From the UHGV virus genome UHGV-0120658: a DNA stretch of 39,443 nt; one strand, 5' to 3'. Position numbers and translations under genes: made by a program. The DNA is from a virus. This document shows, one piece after another, positions 1,065 through 13,111 of the stretch (position 1 is its first letter; the number at the start of each line of letters is the position of its first letter). Below the pieces are notes generated by a model that was not told the DNA's origin, ran no database searches, and saw only the letters and a list, made by a program, of their open reading frames with translations.

Positions 1065-2096
1065 TCAAAAACTTGCTATTGATGTTGGTAGTGTTGCCAG
1101 CGGATTAAACCGTAATGCAGTTTCCAGGTGATCCGGTGCCAGATGTGCGTAACGCATAGTCATTTTTATATCGTGATGCCCGAGAATTTTTTGTAAGGCC
1201 AGGATATTTCCACCCGACATCATGAAGTGCGCCGCAAACGTATGGCGCAGAACGTGTGTCAGTTGACCGCGAGGGAGCACGATAGACGTTTTTTCCATCA
1301 CGGATAAAAATTGAAAATAGCAGTCTGTAAAGAAATTGAACCCATCAAGCGCCATGATCTCTTCGTAAAGCTCTTTACTGATAGGGATGCTTCTGTTTTT
1401 CTTCCCCTTCGTTCTTACAAAGGTAATTCGGTATTTGGTCACCTGTGAGCGGGTAAGATTTACGGCTTCACGCCAACGTGCGCCTGTGCTTAAGCATATC
1501 TTAACTACCAGTGCCAGAATTGGGTCCTGACGTTTGCAATCAGCCAGCAATTCAACAATCTGCTCATGGGTAAGCCATGCCATCTCTTTTTCTGCGATGG
1601 TGAATTTTCGCATGTTCTCCAGTGGGTTTGGATACGACCATTCGCCCAGGCGGGATAGTTCGCTAAAAACACTACTTAGATAGCTTTGCTCCAGGTTAAT
1701 GGTGACCGGGCTGGCTCCTTTCTTCCATTTCTCGCTGAAGTAGATCTCACCTGTCAGGCGTTTATCTCGATAGTGGGCAAACATTTTAGAGGTGAGATTG
1801 GTTGCAAGAGGATTGCCTAGAGCGTCAACCATCAGCAGCAATTTGTCATAGACATGCTGCCCAGCAGTCAGAGATTTACCATGTAATTTGAACCATAGCT
1901 CAACCACGTCTTTCAGGGTTCGACGATCCACTGATTCGCCCAGCCAGGGCTTTGATTCGGTTTCTTCCATCGTGTGACGCTCAAAAGCCAGTGCTTCGCC
2001 TTTGGTGGCGAATTGTTTACGCACACGACGCCCACTACGTCCGGCGGGGTAACATTCGCAAAGCCATTTTCCTGTGGTGAGTTTTCGTACTGCCAT
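1065..2096 (-). CDS. int: Tyrosine integrase (P2 Int-like)
   Basis: N-terminus MAVRKLTTGKW aligns with remembered P2 Int MAIKKLDDG; C-terminal catalytic signature LRHTFA...GHHDIKMTMRYAHL (R, H-x-x-R, Y). Start chosen at the ATG at 2094-2096, with GAGGG RBS 8 nt upstream on the minus strand. Confidence 0.9.
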   Translation of the reverse strand: MAVRKLTTGKWLCECYPAGRSGRRVRKQFATKGEALAFERHTMEETESKPWLGESVDRRTLKDVVELWFKLHGKSLTAGQHVYDKLLLMVDALGNPLATNLTSKMFAHYRDKRLTGEIYFSEKWKKGASPVTINLEQSYLSSVFSELSRLGEWSYPNPLENMRKFTIAEKEMAWLTHEQIVELLADCKRQDPILALVVKICLSTGARWREAVNLTRSQVTKYRITFVRTKGKKNRSIPISKELYEEIMALDGFNFFTDCYFQFLSVMEKTSIVLPRGQLTHVLRHTFAAHFMMSGGNILALQKILGHHDIKMTMRYAHLAPDHLETALRFNPLATLPTSIASF

Positions 2097-2122
2097 AAAA
2101 AAAGCCCTCATATCAGAGGGCT
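2097..2122 (-). terminator. Hairpin plus U-run just upstream of the int start (candidate terminator for the repressor-orf314 transcript)
   Basis: Stem agccctc (2103-2109) pairs with gagggct (2116-2122), 6-nt loop; on the minus strand it is followed by TTTTTT (2097-2102). Confidence 0.4.
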
Positions 2123-2124
2123 AA

Positions 2125-2153
2125 ATTTAACTGTATATAAAAACAGTATTCAA
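2125..2153 (-). promoter_or_regulatory. Candidate sigma70 promoter for int with a LexA box filling the spacer
   Basis: Minus strand reads TTGAAT (2153-2148), 17-nt spacer, TTAAAT (2130-2125). The spacer 2131-2146 is CTGTatataaaaACAG on the plus strand (CTGT-N8-ACAG). Confidence 0.45.
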
Positions 2154-2187: not shown

Positions 2188-3132
2188 TTAATCTGTTTCT
2201 TTATCACTTCCAGTTACTTTAACTTTGTCTTTGATTGTATTCACAAATGACGCAAAGCTCGGTGGTTGCTCTGTCTGACCTGAAAATGCAGAGTCACCTG
2301 AAATATTCCAATCCTTAAAGACTTCTATTGCATCCTCTTTAGTTGCTGTAGAACCGTATATCTGCAAAAAAACTTGACCAAACATCAAAGCATGTCGACG
2401 ATCTTTTCGCCTGATCGATTCATGTGTGTACTTTTTTGAGTTACTAAGGCAGATATATGATAGCCATGAAAGAATGGCGATTCCAACTAATCCTCGCGTG
2501 AAGATATATATTAACTGAAGGTTAGTGAGATTTTTTAAATCTAAGTTCATGTATAATGTAAAAAAAGCAGATACTACCGCAAGGAAGCCAAAAAATACCC
2601 CAGCAATAGACCAGATAATAGACATCAATATAAAATGTTTGTCATCACTAGCAAGATCTGATTTAACATCGTTAACATAGGTAGGGATTTTTTCATCGAT
2701 TCTTTGTTGCTGTACTTGGCTACGGAGTTCCTTATTTTCACTAATCAATGAATTAACTTGTTTTACATTTTTTTCGATTATTGCGTTTTTTCTATTAATA
2801 TCCTGAGTATAATGCTCTAACTGTAGAGTTAATATGCTGTTTCGTTCTTCTAATTGTATTATATGTTCTACATAATTATTAGGTTCAAGTGATTTTACAT
2901 TTTTTCTTTTATTAGTTTCATTTTCATTTATATTGGGTTCTTCATCCATCGCTGGCCTAGTTATGTATTTTTCAATTAGTGCTAGGTTATTATGAGCTTC
3001 AGAAAACTCTCCTGCTTCTATTAAGTTTTTTATATGAGAGTAGAAGTGTTTTGCTATATTTTCAGACTGTGAATCAAGAAAGTCTAATAGGTGTTTTTTT
3101 ATTTCGCTATCTTTATTGGTTGGTTCAGTCAT
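2188..3132 (-). CDS. Hypothetical 314-aa coiled-coil membrane protein (two predicted TM helices); cargo in the lysogenic operon
   Basis: AT-rich ORF between repressor and int on the same strand. Heptad-rich N-terminal half, two hydrophobic helices (ILMSIIWSIAGVFFGFLAVVSAFFTLYM and LQLIYIFTRGLVGIAILSWLSYICL, about 2446-2631), soluble C-terminus. Start codon 12 nt after the repressor stop. Confidence 0.6.
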   Translation of the reverse strand: MTEPTNKDSEIKKHLLDFLDSQSENIAKHFYSHIKNLIEAGEFSEAHNNLALIEKYITRPAMDEEPNINENETNKRKNVKSLEPNNYVEHIIQLEERNSILTLQLEHYTQDINRKNAIIEKNVKQVNSLISENKELRSQVQQQRIDEKIPTYVNDVKSDLASDDKHFILMSIIWSIAGVFFGFLAVVSAFFTLYMNLDLKNLTNLQLIYIFTRGLVGIAILSWLSYICLSNSKKYTHESIRRKDRRHALMFGQVFLQIYGSTATKEDAIEVFKDWNISGDSAFSGQTEQPPSFASFVNTIKDKVKVTGSDKETD

Positions 3133-3143
3133 GATGTTTCTCT

Positions 3144-4079
3144 TTATATATTTTTAGTAAAAACTCTTTTACATTTTGCCAAAACGATAATGTCAGTAAG
3201 TAAGCATTCAAAACTTGTGTTAGTGCCTACAACTTTAACCATACCAACGGGTATGCGAGTCAAATCTTTGATGCTTATTTTCCCTTCAATATTCACAAGC
3301 CACTTGCCATCAGTAACTTCATTAAATTTTGATTCTACAATATATATTTCCTCATCAATGAATACTGCTAAAGGTTGCAGAAAGGTTCCTTCTAACAACT
3401 TAGAGTCAAAAGTCAAGACGGTTTCTTGAGCAAGAGATCCATCAATTATTTTATGATATGGGATAGTGATAGTATTGATTCGAGGCTTTTCAAACATTGC
3501 CCCGTTACCAGTGGTTAGCCATGTTAATGAAGCACCAGTTTCCAGTGAGCATTGAATAATCCAGTCAGCAGGAAAGGTATCTCTCATGTAACGATTGGCT
3601 AATGTACTTTTTGATACACCAATATGATCAGCTAAAGCTTGTCTTGTCTTAAATCCATAAGCCAAAACGATTCGCTCTATTGCTGCTTTTCCGCCTTGGT
3701 TAATAGTAAAAAAGTTCTCATTTTGGATGTCTTGTTCTCTATTGAGATGTTGATGCTTGCTGTCACAATTGTTGTGACTTTTTTCTGCATTATTTGTAAT
3801 GCTTCCCTTCTCGGTATCAGTGCCAAATGCCAACCACTCGACCGGCACTCCAGTCTCCATGCTACAGATAACAACCCAATCAGCAGGGAAAGTGTCACGG
3901 GCATACCTGTTCGCCATTGTACTTTGCGATATACCTAGGTGATTACAGAATGCTTGTCGGGAAGAAAAACCATAGGCTTTCAGTATCCGATCTATAACCG
4001 ATTGCCCTCCGCGATTCTGCATGATTAAGGATTTCTTTTTTTCGTCCACATGGCGAAATGTGATTTCGTGTGTTGACAT
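3144..4079 (-). CDS. Prophage immunity repressor with two tandem CI-type HTH domains and a C-terminal beta-rich domain
   Basis: Residues about 24-86 and 129-191 are about 59% identical repeats (AYGF..RQA...G.S.ST.ANRY.RDTFPADW...CS.ETG...WL..G), resembling the phage CI N-terminal HTH. Divergent from the Apl-like gene across the 4080-4167 intergenic region. Confidence 0.7.
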   Translation of the reverse strand: MSTHEITFRHVDEKKKSLIMQNRGGQSVIDRILKAYGFSSRQAFCNHLGISQSTMANRYARDTFPADWVVICSMETGVPVEWLAFGTDTEKGSITNNAEKSHNNCDSKHQHLNREQDIQNENFFTINQGGKAAIERIVLAYGFKTRQALADHIGVSKSTLANRYMRDTFPADWIIQCSLETGASLTWLTTGNGAMFEKPRINTITIPYHKIIDGSLAQETVLTFDSKLLEGTFLQPLAVFIDEEIYIVESKFNEVTDGKWLVNIEGKISIKDLTRIPVGMVKVVGTNTSFECLLTDIIVLAKCKRVFTKNI

Positions 4080-5995: not shown

Positions 5996-6222
5996 TGGCT
6001 GATGCAATGGATCTCGTACAGCAGCGCGTTGAAGAAGAACGCCAGCGCCATATCCGTGCTGCCCGTGCCAAAACACCGGGCGTGTCTCGCGTGCTTTGCA
6101 TTGAATGTGAAGCACCAATTCCGCCAGCACGCCGCCGTGCCATTCCTGGAGTGCAGCTTTGCATTACCTGTCAGGAAATCGCAGAGCTGAAAGGCAAACA
6201 TTACAACGGAGGTGCTGTATGA
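5995..6222 (+). CDS. TraR/DksA-family C4 zinc-finger protein
   Basis: CIECEAPIPPARRRAIPGVQLCITCQ gives a CxxC-N17-CxxC finger; position matches the small zinc-finger ORF upstream of A in P2-like phages. Confidence 0.75.
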   Translation: MADAMDLVQQRVEEERQRHIRAARAKTPGVSRVLCIECEAPIPPARRRAIPGVQLCITCQEIAELKGKHYNGGAV

Positions 6223-7076
6223 GCACCATCCTGAAATGGGCGGGAAATAAAACCGCAATTATGTCCGAACTGAAAAAATACCTACCTGCTGGCCCGCGAC
6301 TGGTTGAACCTTTCGCGGGTTCCTGTGCTGTGATGATGGAGACGGATTACCCCAGCTATCTGGTTGCGGATATTAATCCTGATTTAATCAACCTCTATAA
6401 AAAGATTGCCGCTGATTGCGAGGCGTTTATATCGCGGACCAGAACTTTGTTTGAGGAAGCAAACAGTGACCTAGCTTATTACAACATAAGGCAGGAGTTT
6501 AATTACTCAACTGAAATTACTGATTTCATGAAAGCGATATATTTCCTGTATCTCAATCGTCATGGTTACCGTGGGTTATGTCGCTATAACAAGAGCGGGC
6601 ATTTCAACATTCCCTACGGTAATTATAAAAATCCGTATTTCCCTGAAAAAGAAATTCGCGCATTTGCAGAAAAAGCCCAGCGGGCAACGTTTATCTGCGC
6701 CAGCTTTGATGAAACGCTGGCGATGTTGAAGGCGGGGGATGTGGTGTATTGCGATCCGCCGTATGACGGCACGTTTTCCGGTTATCACACTGACGGCTTC
6801 ACTGAAGATGACCAGTATCACCTGGCATCCGTTCTTGAATATCGATCATCAGAAGGTCATCCGGTCATTGTTTCTAACAGTGACACATCCCTGATCCGTT
6901 CGCTGTATCGCAATTTCACTCACCACTACATCAAGGCAAAACGCAGCATCGGCGTGTCAGCTGGCGAGAGTAAATCTGCAACAGAAATCATTGCTGTTTC
7001 CGGGTCGCGCTGCTGGATGGGATTTGATCCTTCGCGTGGCGTGGATAGTTCTGCTGTGTACGAGGTGCGTGTATGA
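6219..7076 (+). CDS. dam: DNA adenine methyltransferase (Dam-like, N6-A MTase)
   Basis: N-terminal LKWAGNK and AdoMet motif EPFAGSCAV, catalytic DPPY (VYCDPPYDG). ATGA overlap with the TraR-like gene at the start and with gene A at the end. Confidence 0.85.
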
Positions 7077-9487
7077 GTCATGACGATATGAGCAACTCTA
7101 GCGGCTTTAACGAGGCTGCCGCAGCATTTTCATGGAACGGCCCGAAAAAGGCCATTAACCCTTATCTGGATCCGGCGGAAGTTGCGCCGGAGTCTGCACT
7201 TTCAAACCTGATCACTCTGTACGCTGCCGATAACGAGCAGGAACAACTGCGCCGCGAGGCACTGAGTGAGCAGGTCTGGGAGCGTTATTTCTTTAATGAA
7301 TCCCGTGATCCTGTCCAGCGCGAAATGGAGCAGGATAAGCTCATTAGCCGGGCAAAGCTGGCGCATGAGCAGCAGCGTTTTAACCCGGACATGGTCATTC
7401 TGGCAGATGTCAGCGCCCAGCCTTCTCATATCAGCAAGCCGCTGATGCAAAGTATCGAATACTTCAGCAGCCTGGGCAGGCCAAAGGCTTATTCCCGCTA
7501 TTTGCGTGAGACGATTAAGCCATGTCTGGAGCGACTGGATTGTGTACGTGACAGTCAGCTATCTGTTTCTTTCCGTTTTATGGCAAGCCATCAAGGGCTG
7601 GAGGGGCTGCTGATCCTGCCTGAAATGAGCCAGGATCAGGTGAAACGCCTGTCCACCCTGGTAGCAGCGCATATGAGCATGTGTCTTGAGGCCGCTTGTG
7701 GTGATTTGTACGCCACCGATGACGTTAAGCCAGAAGAAATCCGCAAGACATGGGAAAAGGTGGCTGCGGAAACCCTGCGTCTGGATGTTATCCCGCCTGC
7801 GTTTGAGAAACTTCGTCGGAAAAGAAACCGCCGCAAACCTGTGCCCTATGAACTCATACCGGGTTCGCTGGCACGTATGCTTTGCGCCGACTGGTGGTAT
7901 CGAAAATTGTGGAAGATGCGTTGCGAATGGCGGGAAGAGCAGTTGCGTGCTGTCTGTCTGGTCAGCAAAAAAGCATCTCCCTATGTCAGCTATGAAGCAG
8001 TGACGCATAAACGTGAGCAGCGCCGCAAGTCGCTGGAGTTTTTCCGTTCTCATGAACTGGTGAACGAAGACGGAGACACGCTGGATATGGAAGATGTGGT
8101 AAACGCCAGCAGCAGCAACCCGGCACATCGCCGCAATGAGATGATGGCCTGCGTTAAAGGTCTGGAGCTTATCGCGGAAATGCGCGGTGACTGCGCCGTT
8201 TTCTACACCATCACCTGTCCGTCACGTTTCCATTCCACGCTCAATAACGGCAGACCAAACCCGACCTGGACAAATGCGACGGTAAGACAAAGCAGTGATT
8301 ATCTGGTCGGCATGTTTGCTGCATTTCGTAAGGCGATGCACAAAGCCGGATTGCGGTGGTATGGCGTGCGGGTGGCTGAGCCGCATCATGACGGTACTGT
8401 GCACTGGCATCTCATGTGCTTCATGCGTAAAAAAGACCGCCGCGCCATCACTGCATTACTGCGTAAGTTTGCCATCCGTGAAGACCGCGAGGAACTGGGC
8501 AATAACACGGGGCCACGCTTTAAGTCTGAGCTGATTAACCCGCGCAAAGGAACGCCGACAAGCTACATCGCGAAATACATCAGTAAGAACATTGACGGGC
8601 GTGGTCTGGCTGGCGAGATCAGCAAGGAAACGGGTAAATCCCTGCGTGATAACGCTGAATACGTTAATGCCTGGGCGTCTCTGCATCGTGTTCAGCAATT
8701 CCGCTTCTTTGGCATTCCGGGGCGTCAGGCTTACCGTGAACTGCGATTGCTGGCTGGTCAGGCGGCAAGGCAGCAGGGTGACAAAAAAGCAGGTGCGCCG
8801 GTACTGGATGATCCGCGTCTTGATGCCATTCTGGCTGCTGCTGATGCTGGCTGTTTTGCCACCTACATTATGAAGCAGGGCGGCGTGTTGGTTCCCCGCA
8901 AATATCACTTGATCAGAACCGCTTATGAAATCAACGAAGAGCCGACCGCCTATGGTGATCACGGTATTCGTATTTATGGCATCTGGTCACCCATTGCAGA
9001 GGGCAAGATCTGCACTCATGCAGTGAAGTGGAAAATGGTTCGTAAGGCCGTTGACGTTCAGGAGGCGGCAGCCGACCAGGGCGCTTGCGCCCCTTGGACT
9101 CGTGGCAATAACTGTCCCCTTGCTGAAAATTTGAACCAACAGGAGAAAGATAAATCAGCTGATGGGGACCCCAGAACGGACATTACCAGCATGGATGACA
9201 AGGGGTTGCACGATTACCTGCACAGTATGAGCAAAAAAGAGCGCCGGGAACTGGCAGCAAGGTTATGCCTGGTGAAACCGAAACGGCGTAAAGACTACAA
9301 ACAGCGAATTACAGACCATCAGCGACTGCAGCTCGTGTATGAGCTGAAGTCCAGAGGATTTGATGGCAGCGAGAAAGAGGTCGATTTACTCCTTCGCGGA
9401 GGCAGTATTCCGTCAGGAGCAGGCCTGCGTATCTTCTATCGGAACCAGCGTTTGCAGGAAGATGATCAGTGGCGGAACCTGTATTAA
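7073..9487 (+). CDS. A: Replication initiation protein A (rolling-circle endonuclease, P2 gpA-like)
   Basis: 804 aa with HxH motif VHWHLMCF and the tyrosine pair SYIAKYISK typical of P2 A-type initiators. Confidence 0.85.
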
Positions 9488-9556
9488 TTACGCGGGTTAA
9501 CAATTCGTGCTCTTAATAATACCAGGCATATCAGGCTGATGAATGTAAAAAAACGT

Positions 9557-9597
9557 TTTACATCAGTAAGATTATTATATACTGTAAATATAAACAG
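9557..9597 (+). promoter_or_regulatory. Candidate SOS promoter with a LexA box overlapping the -10
   Basis: TTTACA (9557-9562), 17-nt spacer, TACTGT (9580-9585); CTGTaaatataaACAG at 9582-9597 matches the LexA consensus CTGT-N8-ACAG. Confidence 0.5.
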
Positions 9598-9640
9598 TGG
9601 TTATACATACAGTATTGCGTGTGGTGTCATAGGAGGAAAG

Positions 9641-9829
9641 ATGCAGGACTATTTTTTGGAGTCTTTGAAGCTCCAGCGCATTGATTTTTTTCTTAAGCTT
9701 GTAGCGGCTAGTGAGTGTAGTGATGAAGAGAAGGGGCTGGCTCTGCAGTGGGTTTCTGAATTGACTGATGAACTCATGGCAAAAATCAGAACCCACGAAT
9801 ACAACCGCTCAATGGATGTCATCAGCTGA
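9641..9829 (+). CDS. Small 62-aa protein in the LexA-controlled module (candidate antirepressor partner)
   Basis: ATG at 9641 with AGGAGG RBS, immediately downstream of the LexA box. Function inferred from position. Confidence 0.45.
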   Translation: MQDYFLESLKLQRIDFFLKLVAASECSDEEKGLALQWVSELTDELMAKIRTHEYNRSMDVIS

Positions 9830-9839
9830 GGTGACTTTT

Positions 9840-10073
9840 ATGCGCATTGAAATAATGATCGATAAAGAGCAGAAGATTAGCCAGTCTACCCTGGACGCCC
9901 TTGAATCCGAGCTTTACCGCAATCTGCGCCCCCTGTATCCCAAAACGGTAATTCGCATTCGCAAAGGTAGCTCTAACGGTGTGGAACTAACCGGACTGCA
10001 ACTGGACGAAGAAAGAAAACAAGTGATGAAAATTATGCAGAAGGTGTGGGAAGACGACAGCTGGCTGCATTAA
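9840..10073 (+). CDS. DinI-family protein (Tum/DinI-like SOS module)
   Basis: 77 aa MRIEIMIDKEQKISQSTLDALESELYRNLRPLYP...KIMQKVWEDDSWLH resembles E. coli DinI (MRIEVTIAK...ETWESADDWF); GAGGTG RBS. Confidence 0.65.
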   Translation: MRIEIMIDKEQKISQSTLDALESELYRNLRPLYPKTVIRIRKGSSNGVELTGLQLDEERKQVMKIMQKVWEDDSWLH

Positions 10074-10208
10074 GAAACGTTGCTGGCGTCTGAACTTGCT
10101 TCTGGCGTCAGCAAGGTTGAACAACGAGCCCTTGCGAGGCGTTAGCTCTGTAGTGCATGTCTATGCCGCATGAGATCGCATGATCGTTTGAGGATCGTTT
10201 TTGCTAAG

Positions 10209-10232
10209 GCCCGCCAGAACTGGCGGGCTTTT
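10209..10232 (+). terminator. Rho-independent terminator after the SOS module
   Basis: gcccgcca (10209-10216), loop gaac, tggcgggc (10221-10228), then tttt. Confidence 0.6.
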
Positions 10233-10383
10233 GCGTAGCTCATGCAGGTGCATGAAAACCACTACATAAAGCGGGCAGGCGTGGCGGGGATACGAGCGCG
10301 CGCTTAGCCATGAATCTGTGGACTTGATGGTGAAGCTAAGGTAATTTGTATCAAAAAAAAGCAGTACAATAGGGATATATAGA

Positions 10384-11463
10384 GTGGCGTTATCAGATGC
10401 GTTAATTACAGTAAATCAAGCCGAACGGGGCGGTGAAAACGCGTTGAGAGGCTTTTCATATCAAGCCTCTTGGGGGATAAATTATTTACTTGAGAAACAA
10501 AAAGAAAAGGAGAAATATTTATTTCTATTTGAATATCATGACGATATTCTTGTATTGAATTCATCTGTTTCTCCGACTAGTGCTGAGTTTATCCAAGTTA
10601 AAACAAAAAAAGATGGTAAATGGACACTCGCAGCAATAGTGAACGCAACAAAAGCTAAACCTAAATCATTTGTTGCAAAACTATATGACCATTTCTATCA
10701 ATTCGTTGGTCACGAAATTTATATGGTTCTGTTATCGAATGCTGGATTCGATTTCTTAAATGATAATAACGAAAAAGGTAGTGATCTTAATAATGAGCAT
10801 AAGGAAATTATAATTAGTAAGGTTCAAGAGCAGCTAAATACTAAAAAAGAAGTTCCTCTTGATAAAATAAAATTTAAAACATCTGATCTTAGTTTGTTAG
10901 ATCCTAACTCACATTTATACGGGAAAGTTGCAGTTTTTTTGAATTCTTACTTTGGGGATGATCATGGTATTAATTCAACAGCATTCACTAAATTATTAAT
11001 CAATAAGTGTAATGAGAAGGTTAGTGTTGCTTCTAGTGATATCAAAACTTTTGAAGATTTAGTACTAAAGAAAGGTATATCTTCAGAATTTGTAACTGAT
11101 TTATTATCTGGACTCATTGCAAGCATAAAAATAACGCCAAAATGGGAACAGGTTTGTATGTTGCTTGGTACTTTCTCAGATCCTTATGAGGGGATTAAAT
11201 TACAATCAGTTTTTACACGCATATCAATAAAAGTGCTCAATGTCAATTCAATATACTATCTTTATTTTCTGGAATTTCAATCGGCTCTAAAGAGTATAGA
11301 GCATTATCGTGAGATACCTGTTCGAGACCTCTTCTTTACACTCGAAAAAACAATTGCAGCGGGGGACGGGGATTTCTCTTTATTAAATCAAGAAGAGAAA
11401 TTTATGATTGCTATATATGCAATTATAAAGTTGACTTTTGAGGATGTTTCTTATGAAGAATAA
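10384..11463 (+). CDS. Candidate defence effector: PD-(D/E)xK nuclease of the Cap4/DUF4297 type (LmuA-like)
   Basis: AT-rich gene; N-terminal GFSYQ, then FEYHDDILVL...AEFIQVKTKK, i.e. a D...QxK restriction-endonuclease-like catalytic core (about 10540-10602). GTG start with AGGGA RBS; 11-nt overlap with the downstream ATPase gene. Confidence 0.55.
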   Translation: MALSDALITVNQAERGGENALRGFSYQASWGINYLLEKQKEKEKYLFLFEYHDDILVLNSSVSPTSAEFIQVKTKKDGKWTLAAIVNATKAKPKSFVAKLYDHFYQFVGHEIYMVLLSNAGFDFLNDNNEKGSDLNNEHKEIIISKVQEQLNTKKEVPLDKIKFKTSDLSLLDPNSHLYGKVAVFLNSYFGDDHGINSTAFTKLLINKCNEKVSVASSDIKTFEDLVLKKGISSEFVTDLLSGLIASIKITPKWEQVCMLLGTFSDPYEGIKLQSVFTRISIKVLNVNSIYYLYFLEFQSALKSIEHYREIPVRDLFFTLEKTIAAGDGDFSLLNQEEKFMIAIYAIIKLTFEDVSYEE

Positions 11464-13111
11464 CGTTAAATTTAAAAATATAAAAATACTCTCATTAAGA
11501 GACAGAAAAGCTTTTTCTTATGAGTTTTCAGAAGGGGTTAACTTCATATATGGTACAAATGATGTTGGTAAATCAAGCCTGATTAAAAGTCTTTATTACA
11601 CATTAGGTGGAGATTTAAGGCTTGATGATGCTTGGAAATCAGATGATATAGTTACACTGGTGGAAATTAATAACGGGGAAAATGATTTTATTTTTTTGCG
11701 TTATAAAAAGATTATTGGTGTCTTTGATTTGAAGAATGATGATCTAGTCGTGTATAACACGATTTCGTCATTAGCATCTCGTGTTTCAAATATATTTGGT
11801 TTTAAACTGGAATTACATAATAAATATACGGGTGCTACGACTCAGGCAAACCCTGCTTGTTTGTTTGCCCCATTCTTTATTGATCAGGATGAAGGATGGA
11901 AAGCGGTGATAAATTCTTTCGAAAACATGAGTATGTACTCAGAATGGCAAAAAAACATTCTTTACTATCACTCTGGAATTAAGCCAAAGGAATATTATAC
12001 AGTTCAAGGGAAAATCAAAGAAATTAAAGTTAAAATTTCAGAGTTAGATGGTTTTGTTAAGGTTCTAAAAAGAAGCAAAAGTAAGATTGATGAATCTTTT
12101 GGCGTGGTTTTATTTGATGTTGATTTGGATTTTTATAAATCAAAGTTGGAACGTATATTAAATGAATATTCTAATTTAAATTTAGTTCAGACAGAATATA
12201 GATTGAATCTTTTGAGGTTATATTCTAGGAAGAATTTCCTTGAGAGTGAACTCAAAGAGATAACTGCGATTATTGATAATGAATTTGAGATTTCGAATTT
12301 TCGAGATGATAATGTTGCTTATTCAGTAAATGAATATAATTATATAAACCATAGAGATGAAATGCTCAAAAACATTGCTGTTCTTGCAGATGAGAAAAGC
12401 AAGATTGAGGAAAATATTCCTAAATTGAATCAAAAGCTAGAAGAGTCAAGGGCTGCTTCAGAGGCGTTGCAGGCGCTGATTTTAGAAACTCAATCGGAAA
12501 TAACGCTTCATGATGTTATTAAATCTGCCGCATACCATGAAATTGAATCTACTTTTATTTCACAGTTAGATGAGTTATTCGTTGAGATTGGTCGAAAAGA
12601 AGGCGAGTTGACAGAATTACAAGAAGAATTAGAAGTATACAATGATAAGAAAAGAACTGTTAAAATAAATGACTGTTTCAAAGAGTATTTCGCTAAAGCT
12701 CTTAAAGAGCTTGGTGTCGAAAATACAAAGGTAGGTGGCCTTAGTAGTTATAATAATATTACTAAGGGTAAGACTGGTAGTCGAGGTCCTCGAGGTATAT
12801 TTGCATTTCACTACGCGCTGCTTAGTGTTATGAAAAGCAACTCTTCAGTTGAGAATATGCCTATAGTAATAGACTCTCCAAAGCAACAAGATTTGGATCC
12901 AGAGCATACGCATAAGCTTATAAAACTATGCTTGGATGGGTTTTCCCTTACAAATCAGATTATTATTGGAACTGTTGGTTATGAGAGTTTCATGGATGGT
13001 TTTAATAGCATCAAACTTGAAAATAAATATCATCTTTTAAATGATGAACATTATGATAATGTTTATTCTCAATTAATGCCATTGTTTGAACGGGTGATAC
13101 TTTCAAGATGA
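11453..13111 (+). CDS. Candidate defence ATPase: SMC/Rad50-like coiled-coil ABC ATPase (LmuB-like)
   Basis: Walker A GTNDVGKSS near the N-terminus (about 11552-11578), long central heptad-rich region, C-terminal Walker B-like PIVIDSP. ATG at 11453 overlaps the upstream stop (11461-11463). Confidence 0.55.
   Translation: MKNNVKFKNIKILSLRDRKAFSYEFSEGVNFIYGTNDVGKSSLIKSLYYTLGGDLRLDDAWKSDDIVTLVEINNGENDFIFLRYKKIIGVFDLKNDDLVVYNTISSLASRVSNIFGFKLELHNKYTGATTQANPACLFAPFFIDQDEGWKAVINSFENMSMYSEWQKNILYYHSGIKPKEYYTVQGKIKEIKVKISELDGFVKVLKRSKSKIDESFGVVLFDVDLDFYKSKLERILNEYSNLNLVQTEYRLNLLRLYSRKNFLESELKEITAIIDNEFEISNFRDDNVAYSVNEYNYINHRDEMLKNIAVLADEKSKIEENIPKLNQKLEESRAASEALQALILETQSEITLHDVIKSAAYHEIESTFISQLDELFVEIGRKEGELTELQEELEVYNDKKRTVKINDCFKEYFAKALKELGVENTKVGGLSSYNNITKGKTGSRGPRGIFAFHYALLSVMKSNSSVENMPIVIDSPKQQDLDPEHTHKLIKLCLDGFSLTNQIIIGTVGYESFMDGFNSIKLENKYHLLNDEHYDNVYSQLMPLFERVILSR

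Follow-up and report, generated by a model that had tools for sequence, protein, structure and literature searches.

General features of the prophage and its SOS module

The window, which is the whole stretch of DNA analysed in this study, comprises the 39,443 nucleotides of the viral genome UHGV-0120658 and holds a prophage of the P2/186-like group (Peduoviridae) whose insertion site adjoins rcdA. At the left end, this prophage carries the integrase gene, a cargo gene, a gene for a CI-type repressor, an apl/cox-like gene followed by cII, a Dam methylase gene and replication gene A. Directly 3' of gene A, at the position occupied by tum in phage 186, lies a compact operon with a LexA-type operator, two small genes and a terminator. 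The features considered below are as follows.

1065-2111, minus strand: integrase gene (int)
2188-3132, minus strand: cargo ORF of 314 aa between cI and int
3144-4079, minus strand: CI-type repressor of 311 aa, the presumed target of Tum
6219-7076: Dam methylase
7073-9487: replication gene A (PF05840, E 1.8e-128)
9557-10232, plus strand: SOS operon, from promoter to terminator
9557-9562, plus strand: -35 element TTTACA, read from the sequence, its position matching the annotated -35 of the 186 promoter p95
9580-9585, plus strand: -10 element TACTGT, separated from the -35 by a 17-nt spacer and forming the left half of LexA box 1
9580-9599, plus strand: LexA box 1, 20-mer TACTGTAAATATAAACAGTG, with the core CTGT-N8-ACAG at 9582-9597
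9582-9597: core of LexA box 1, CTGTAAATATAAACAG, overlapping the -10
9597-9612, plus strand: LexA box 2, GTGGTTATACATACAG, having one base in common with box 1
9641-9829, plus strand, ATG to stop: tum/tumA-like gene of 62 aa (ORF62), predicted antirepressor, with AGGAGG at 9631-9636
9840-10073, plus strand, ATG to stop: tumB-like DinI-family gene of 77 aa (ORF77), PF06183
10209-10232, plus strand: intrinsic terminator, a G+C-rich hairpin GCCCGCCAG..CTGGCGGGC followed by TTTT

In the 314-aa ORF, the N-terminal half is coiled-coil-like and membrane segments are predicted; no significant match to a Pfam or PADLOC family was obtained. The cargo found at this spot between cI and int varies among relatives, being annotated as an 'ATPase' in phage 813R9 and as a hypothetical protein in Klebsiella phage 4LV2017.

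SOS promoter and double LexA operator

The initial annotation described a promoter TTTACA-17 nt-TACTGT located after gene A, with a LexA box over its -10, and all of these elements were found where it had placed them. The box begins (9580) 93 nt past the stop codon of gpA. As to the operator itself, the box at 9582-9597 stood, but the operator is not a single site, because a second box at 9597-9612 had been missed.

Box 1 departs from the 20-mer LexA consensus at three positions. When three or fewer mismatches were allowed, this consensus had two matches in the window and none in 100 shuffled sequences. The 16-mer core also had two matches in the window, against 0.38 expected, and three of the 100 shuffles reached two. 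The double-box pattern had a single match in the window and was absent from the 100 shuffles. Conservation weighs more heavily as evidence than these chance statistics: a LexA box was present upstream of the homologous small ORF in 12 of 12 relatives examined, including SopEphi, several Klebsiella phages, a Yersinia phage, ESSI2, PSP3 and 186, and in the latter three (186, PSP3 and ESSI2) it has been retained although the flanking DNA does not align. The strict double-operator pattern is kept in six Fels-2-type phages, and DuoHS, a prophage of Escherichia coli HS, and ST13phi12.1 also possess a double operator, while 186, PSP3 and ESSI2 have only a single box. The -35 hexamer is unchanged in DuoHS and Fels-2, and the 157-nt upstream region is 97% identical across the window, DuoHS and Fels-2.

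A generic promoter scan did not call the site at 9557-9585, because its -10 is weak. The assignment of a promoter is made by analogy with p95 of 186, an experimentally annotated promoter with the same -10, TACTGT, inside a LexA site. A search of Rfam returned nothing credible in the region 9400-10450.

A search with 45 nt spanning the operator returned matches of about 85% identity in hundreds of small plasmids. Two of these plasmids were inspected; a pore-forming colicin gene in one and a Klebsiella tRNase bacteriocin gene in the other stand just downstream of the match, and the phage operator is about 85% identical to these two bacteriocin operators over 42 nt. The SOS operators of colicin and bacteriocin genes have the same CTGT-N9-CAGTGG-N9-CAGT design, with boxes overlapping by one base. 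In comparison with the colicin promoters, the phage -35 is 8 nt closer, so that the distal LexA box covers the -10 itself, and the genes that follow are unrelated. The operator of the prophage is thus predicted to be a colicin-type double LexA site; such an operator in a Tum module was not found described in the literature examined. Cooperative binding of two LexA dimers, with tight and late induction, would be expected of such a site, and repression should be tighter, and the SOS threshold higher, than for the single box of 186.

The 62-aa protein, a remote homologue of the N-terminal half of Tum

A 62-aa ORF followed by a 77-aa DinI-like protein had been proposed in the initial annotation, and the present analysis confirmed both. 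In comparison with SopEphi, 20 of 31 and 23 of 35 substitutions in the two ORFs, read in the plus frame, fall in third codon positions. Since change in the plus frames is dominated by third positions, both ORFs are regarded as real genes, and the minus-strand ORFs that overlap them may be disregarded; ORF62 is under purifying selection.

ORF62 belongs to the protein family phrog_698 (E 3.6e-38) and also matches phrog_8554 (E 2.4e-8) and phrog_1993 (E 2.2e-3). Residues 1-70 of 186 Tum match the same three families in the opposite order, namely phrog_1993 (E 1.5e-23), phrog_8554 (E 3.4e-12) and phrog_698 (E 5.9e-6), while TumA of PSP3 is a member of phrog_1993. The links among phrog_698, phrog_8554, phrog_1993 and phrog_189, for ORF62 and the N-terminal half of 186 Tum, are reciprocal. 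A profile built from 29 diverse ORF62 relatives was aligned by hhalign to 186 Tum with 94.9% probability (E 4.3e-8), residues 3-44 corresponding to residues 3-44; against PSP3 TumA alone the match of the profile was weak (8.9% probability). Pairwise BLASTP found no similarity between ORF62 and 186 Tum, between ORF62 and PSP3 TumA, or between PSP3 TumA and 186 Tum. The profile matches link ORF62 to 186 Tum and show it to be a free-standing remote homologue of the N-terminal half of this protein.

Much closer relatives exist in other prophages: ORF62 is identical in 61 of 62 residues (98%) to ECHS_RS04495 of DuoHS and 98% identical to STM2728 of Salmonella phage Fels-2. In E. coli HS, ECHS_RS04495 is a 189-nt gene annotated as 'hypothetical protein' and located between gene A and the DinI-like gene ECHS_RS04500.

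The AlphaFold2 model of ORF62 is a two-helix hairpin predicted with confidence (pLDDT 88.5; helices 2-23 and 28-61). A Foldseek search with this model retrieved generic helical hairpins only, none of them at E <= 0.001; a sequence search of PDB with the family profile gave no match, and ORF62 was not assigned to any family in Pfam or PADLOC. One source names the family 'levan regulatory protein', a designation for which no support was found here.

Many database entries extend ORF62 to 84-101 aa from in-frame starts upstream, and the 96-aa ORF at 9539-9829 of the window represents the same start-codon artefact. These long forms are doubtful because their starts precede or fall inside the promoter or LexA boxes, and they are probably start-codon errors.

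In 186 Tum, antirepressor and DinI-like parts are fused, a trait absent in the window, which carries a split variant. A search for fusions of ORF62 with DinI, which could serve as a Rosetta-stone link between them, found none among the best 120 of 482 close relatives, nor among 66 representative clusters.

A different arrangement is found in the Escherichia phage ESSI2_ev129. Positions 9501-9713 of this phage encode a 70-aa homologue of the 62-aa protein, 49% identical to it and preceded by a single LexA box; next come a convergent regulator gene and the portal gene, with no DinI gene. The antirepressor part can therefore stand alone, which is consistent with the small ORF as the essential component.

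The DinI-family protein

ORF77 matches the Pfam family DinI (PF06183) over residues 14-76 with an E-value of 6.6e-23 and a score of 81.3 bits (cut-off 24.2). Its alignment with E. coli DinI (1GHH; E 2.7e-6) runs over the full length and takes in the C-terminal W-E-acidic-W helix. The protein is 41% identical to residues 71-145 of 186 Tum, which make up its DinI-like C-terminal half, 78% identical to TumB of PSP3, and 100% identical to its counterparts in DuoHS (ECHS_RS04500) and Fels-2 (STM2726.1). The gap between the two genes is 10 nt, and the Shine-Dalgarno sequence of ORF77, GAGG, overlaps the stop codon of ORF62. Membership of the DinI family suggests that ORF77 may bind RecA filaments and modulate their coprotease activity. 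In Gifsy prophages, non-polar deletions of dinI caused no measurable change in induction (PMC3121763).

Terminator and downstream region

The proposed terminator at 10209-10232 was borne out, since its hairpin, followed by TTTT, is present in both the MFE and the centroid folds of the 3' UTR; it was not listed by a terminator scan. In 4LV2017 it is kept beyond a cargo insertion.

The interval that separates the stop codon of DinI from the conserved terminator (10074-10260 in the window) constitutes a cargo slot. In 4LV2017 this slot (9836-10760) holds an extra gene of about 760 bp with a signal-peptide-like start, and in Fels-2 (8359-9090) a 732-nt gene equal in length to orf97 of 186. In the window it contains only a structured 135-nt 3' UTR with a hairpin at 10079-10114 (fold z = -3.1). 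Both the terminator and the sequence on either side of it have been retained in these phages.

Just past the terminator of the tum operon, at 10384-13111, the window encodes a two-gene Lamassu anti-phage system consisting of LmuA, with a Cap4-type nuclease domain (PADLOC E 4e-143; PF14130), and LmuB, an SMC-like ATPase (E 8.6e-254). No LmuC-like ORF was seen in this locus, which is directly followed by the portal gene.

LexA box in the int region

The other LexA box of the window (2131-2146) serves as the 17-nt spacer in a promoter-like site directed toward int (2096-2152, minus strand), in which a -35 TTGAAT is followed by the box and by a -10 TTAAAT. Next comes a hairpin, AGCCCTC..GAGGGCT, with a run of seven T residues, abutting the int ATG. 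This arrangement is also found in 813R9 (about position 1333), 4LV2017 (about 1186), ESSI2_ev129 (about 1547) and DuoHS (about 13330), but not in Fels-2, in which int is adjacent to cI. This site may give SOS-dependent expression of int. If transcription from it began within the left arm of the hairpin, these transcripts alone would escape termination.

CI repressor and its pairing with Tum

The CI protein of the window contains two tandem Phage_CI_repr helix-turn-helix (HTH) domains (PF07022) and one C-terminal oligomerisation domain, Phage_CI_C (PF16452). No match to the peptidase S24 domain, responsible for autocleavage, was found in it. The protein belongs to the 186 type of repressor and cannot be expected to self-cleave, a situation that calls for an antirepressor. 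The earlier proposal that SOS induction works here through an antirepressor rather than through repressor cleavage is supported by this domain composition. Two HTH domains are also present in CI of 4LV2017 (313 aa) and PSP3 (286 aa), and the repressors of 186, Fels-2 and DuoHS have one copy. CI of the window is 311 aa long, compared to 189 aa in DuoHS and 210 aa in Fels-2, and is 47% identical to DuoHS CI.

Six phages, namely the window, 813R9, 4LV2017, Cartapus, Fels-2 and DuoHS, share Tum proteins that are at least 97% identical. The CI proteins of these six phages are 25-59% identical in their C-terminal domains and 61-84% identical in their HTH domains; for CI of the window, the values against the other phages with the same Tum are 25-37% and 64-84%, respectively. 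One Tum allele thus seems to serve several immunity types, because the same allele stands beside divergent CIs and because Tum of DuoHS and of Fels-2 has been tied to induction. A pairing of one Tum allele with divergent CIs was not found described in the literature examined.

Most simply, Tum would contact the conserved N-terminal HTH domain of CI, which would also explain the block of DNA binding. We infer that this Tum allele inactivates the double-HTH CI of the window.

When Tum identity was compared with CI identity, no relation was observed for the C-terminal domain and a weak trend was observed for the HTH domain. This trend is not separable from overall relatedness, because gpA follows the same order, and co-evolution of Tum and CI is not claimed.

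Proposed mechanism and alternative explanations

The region 9557-10232 is best read as the SOS operon of a prophage of the Fels-2/DuoHS type (186-like), controlled by LexA and encoding a Tum antirepressor (ORF62) directed against CI and a DinI protein acting on RecA; we assign to this reading a probability of about 0.85. It builds on the anatomy, homology and conservation of the module as observed here, and by analogy extends to this prophage the LexA dependence and the requirement for tum demonstrated in other studies for near-identical or homologous modules.

As long as the lysogen is undamaged, a pair of LexA dimers would occupy the two overlapping boxes, covering the -10 and the start region, and keep the promoter shut. 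Upon DNA damage, active RecA would promote self-cleavage of LexA, the promoter would fire and the two proteins would be made. The helical hairpin protein Tum would then bind the non-cleavable CI stoichiometrically and hold it off its operators, and the early lytic promoter would be released as CI is titrated away. For DinI/TumB, we infer that it most likely modulates RecA filaments or the SOS signal and would be dispensable for derepression itself. In the model of 186 induction, Tum likewise sequesters CI once p95 is derepressed (PMC7708051), and binding of CI by 186 Tum is credited to earlier literature cited in PMC3121763 and PMC7708051.

Experimental data that bear on this reading come from DuoHS. 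According to the passages on this prophage in the Phollow paper (2025, PMC12055606), an in-frame deletion of ECHS_RS04495 (tum) abolished lysis by mitomycin C and the formation of virion foci, and a lexA(Ind-) host likewise blocked induction; those passages leave a polar effect of the tum deletion on DinI as not excluded. Tum of Fels-2 is tied to induction by the title of Bunny et al. (2002) and the summary of that work in PMC3121763.

These data also serve to weigh the other explanations. That the LexA-like sequence arose by chance, with both ORFs being ordinary early or accessory genes without a link to SOS, is scarcely credible: the 16-mer core is only moderately unlikely, two matches being reached in 3 of 100 shuffles, but the 20-mer and double-box patterns are absent from all shuffles, the box is kept in every relative despite diverged flanks, and the lexA(Ind-) result for DuoHS reported in PMC12055606 argues for LexA control. 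It could be supposed instead that the DinI-family protein is the inducer and the 62-aa ORF an accessory gene or leader peptide, since ORF77 is the sole part with a Pfam family and the 186 tum record is labelled as a DinI-type protein. This is very improbable, although somewhat less so than chance, given that the DinI-only products of 186 are annotated as modulators and not as antirepressors, that the activity in PSP3 is placed in the upstream gene by the account in PMC3121763, that ESSI2 has the small ORF without DinI, and that the non-polar dinI deletions in Gifsy left induction unchanged (PMC3121763). Loss of the 62-aa gene in DuoHS, as described in PMC12055606, abolished induction. The initial annotation proposed an induction module, which these results support, without naming either ORF as the antirepressor; on the evidence, ORF62, and not DinI, is the predicted antirepressor part.

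It is also conceivable that the SOS operon works and Tum is mismatched to the resident CI, through recombination of tum with another immunity region, leaving a prophage that is poorly inducible or non-inducible by damage. These phages are mosaic, gpA and tum travelling together while the immunity region varies, and CI of the window, with its 311 aa and two HTH domains, is distant in its C-terminal domain (25-37%) from the CIs of phages with the same Tum. We consider this explanation unlikely, as the same Tum allele (at least 97% identity) stands beside six different CI types, two of the phages carrying it, DuoHS and Fels-2, are those in which Tum is tied to induction by the sources named above (for Fels-2, the title and summary), and repeated retention together with purifying selection argues that Tum works with all those CIs.

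Starting from the preferred reading, in which Tum acts on the resident CI, a wider role can be tentatively proposed, which we consider possible if somewhat doubtful. The near-invariant Tum might act as a master key that inactivates many heteroimmune 186-type CIs via their HTH domains, so that damage would induce several P2/186-like prophages or satellites in trans. The double operator would set a high threshold and restrict the response to a subpopulation, and DinI would damp the RecA coprotease and thereby restrain rivals that depend on cleavage.

Distribution and significance

Of 5426 complete E. coli genomes, 1144 contain a match to the 761-nt module, and in 731 of these the match covers 80% or more of its length. 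The module is annotated there as 'DinI-like family protein' and 'hypothetical protein'. Its presence in about a fifth of the complete genomes of this species makes its recognition of practical use for annotation. RefSeq and phage records list ORF62 as a 'hypothetical protein', yet it is a predicted prophage induction switch and could be named tum/tumA.

The system as such is already known, and a 98%-identical copy has been tested experimentally; the split tumA/tumB form has also been described before, for PSP3 and Fels-2. The additions made here are the assignment of ORF62 as the Tum homologue, the colicin-type double operator, and the occurrence of one Tum with many CI types. The latter two bear on cross-talk between prophages, and the known picture of 186-type induction is unchanged.

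Comparison with known systems

Small antirepressors of the Gifsy and Fels-1 prophages, GfoA, GftA and FsoA, resemble the system of the window in being encoded together with a dinI homologue in one LexA-controlled operon and in acting on a repressor that remains uncleaved (PMC3121763). They differ in that dinI comes first and in that both the repressor and the antirepressor belong to other families (PMC3121763).

Phage 186 likewise has a LexA-repressed promoter after gene A with the -10 TACTGT inside the box, and its CI is of the same Pfam architecture. According to its sequence record, full-length Tum, a LexA-repressed protein of 146 aa, inhibits DNA binding by CI, and products of internal starts, down to a 76-aa DinI-like C-terminal piece, are annotated as modulators of SOS induction. 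The N-terminal domain of Tum corresponds to ORF62 and its C-terminal domain to DinI. The initial annotation placed a Tum-like module at the site expected from 186, and position, the LexA promoter and the homology of ORF62 and DinI to the two halves of Tum agree with this. In contrast to 186, which has one polypeptide of 146 aa with internal starts, a single LexA box and orf97 as the next gene, the window has two genes split by a stop codon and 10 nt, and a double operator.

The split form is shared with PSP3, in which a small upstream antirepressor gene and a DinI homologue form an operon with a LexA box after gene A. The PSP3 record describes tumA, located after gene A, as 'UV induction of prophage' and tumB as a DinI homologue. 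Lemire et al. (PMC3121763), in their remarks on these phages, assign antirepressor activity to the upstream gene, a point that goes back to a personal communication via Bunny et al. (2002), and describe Fels-2 as split in the same way. PSP3 differs from the window in having one LexA box and a TumA of another subfamily (phrog_1993), which is about 20% identical to ORF62 and linked to it by profiles only.

In DuoHS the double LexA operator is identical to that of the window, the prophage occupies the same insertion site adjoining rcdA, and the module is likewise located after gene A, as it is in Fels-2. The differences of DuoHS and Fels-2 from the window lie in the immunity repressor and in the downstream cargo, which is Lamassu in the window and other genes in those two prophages.
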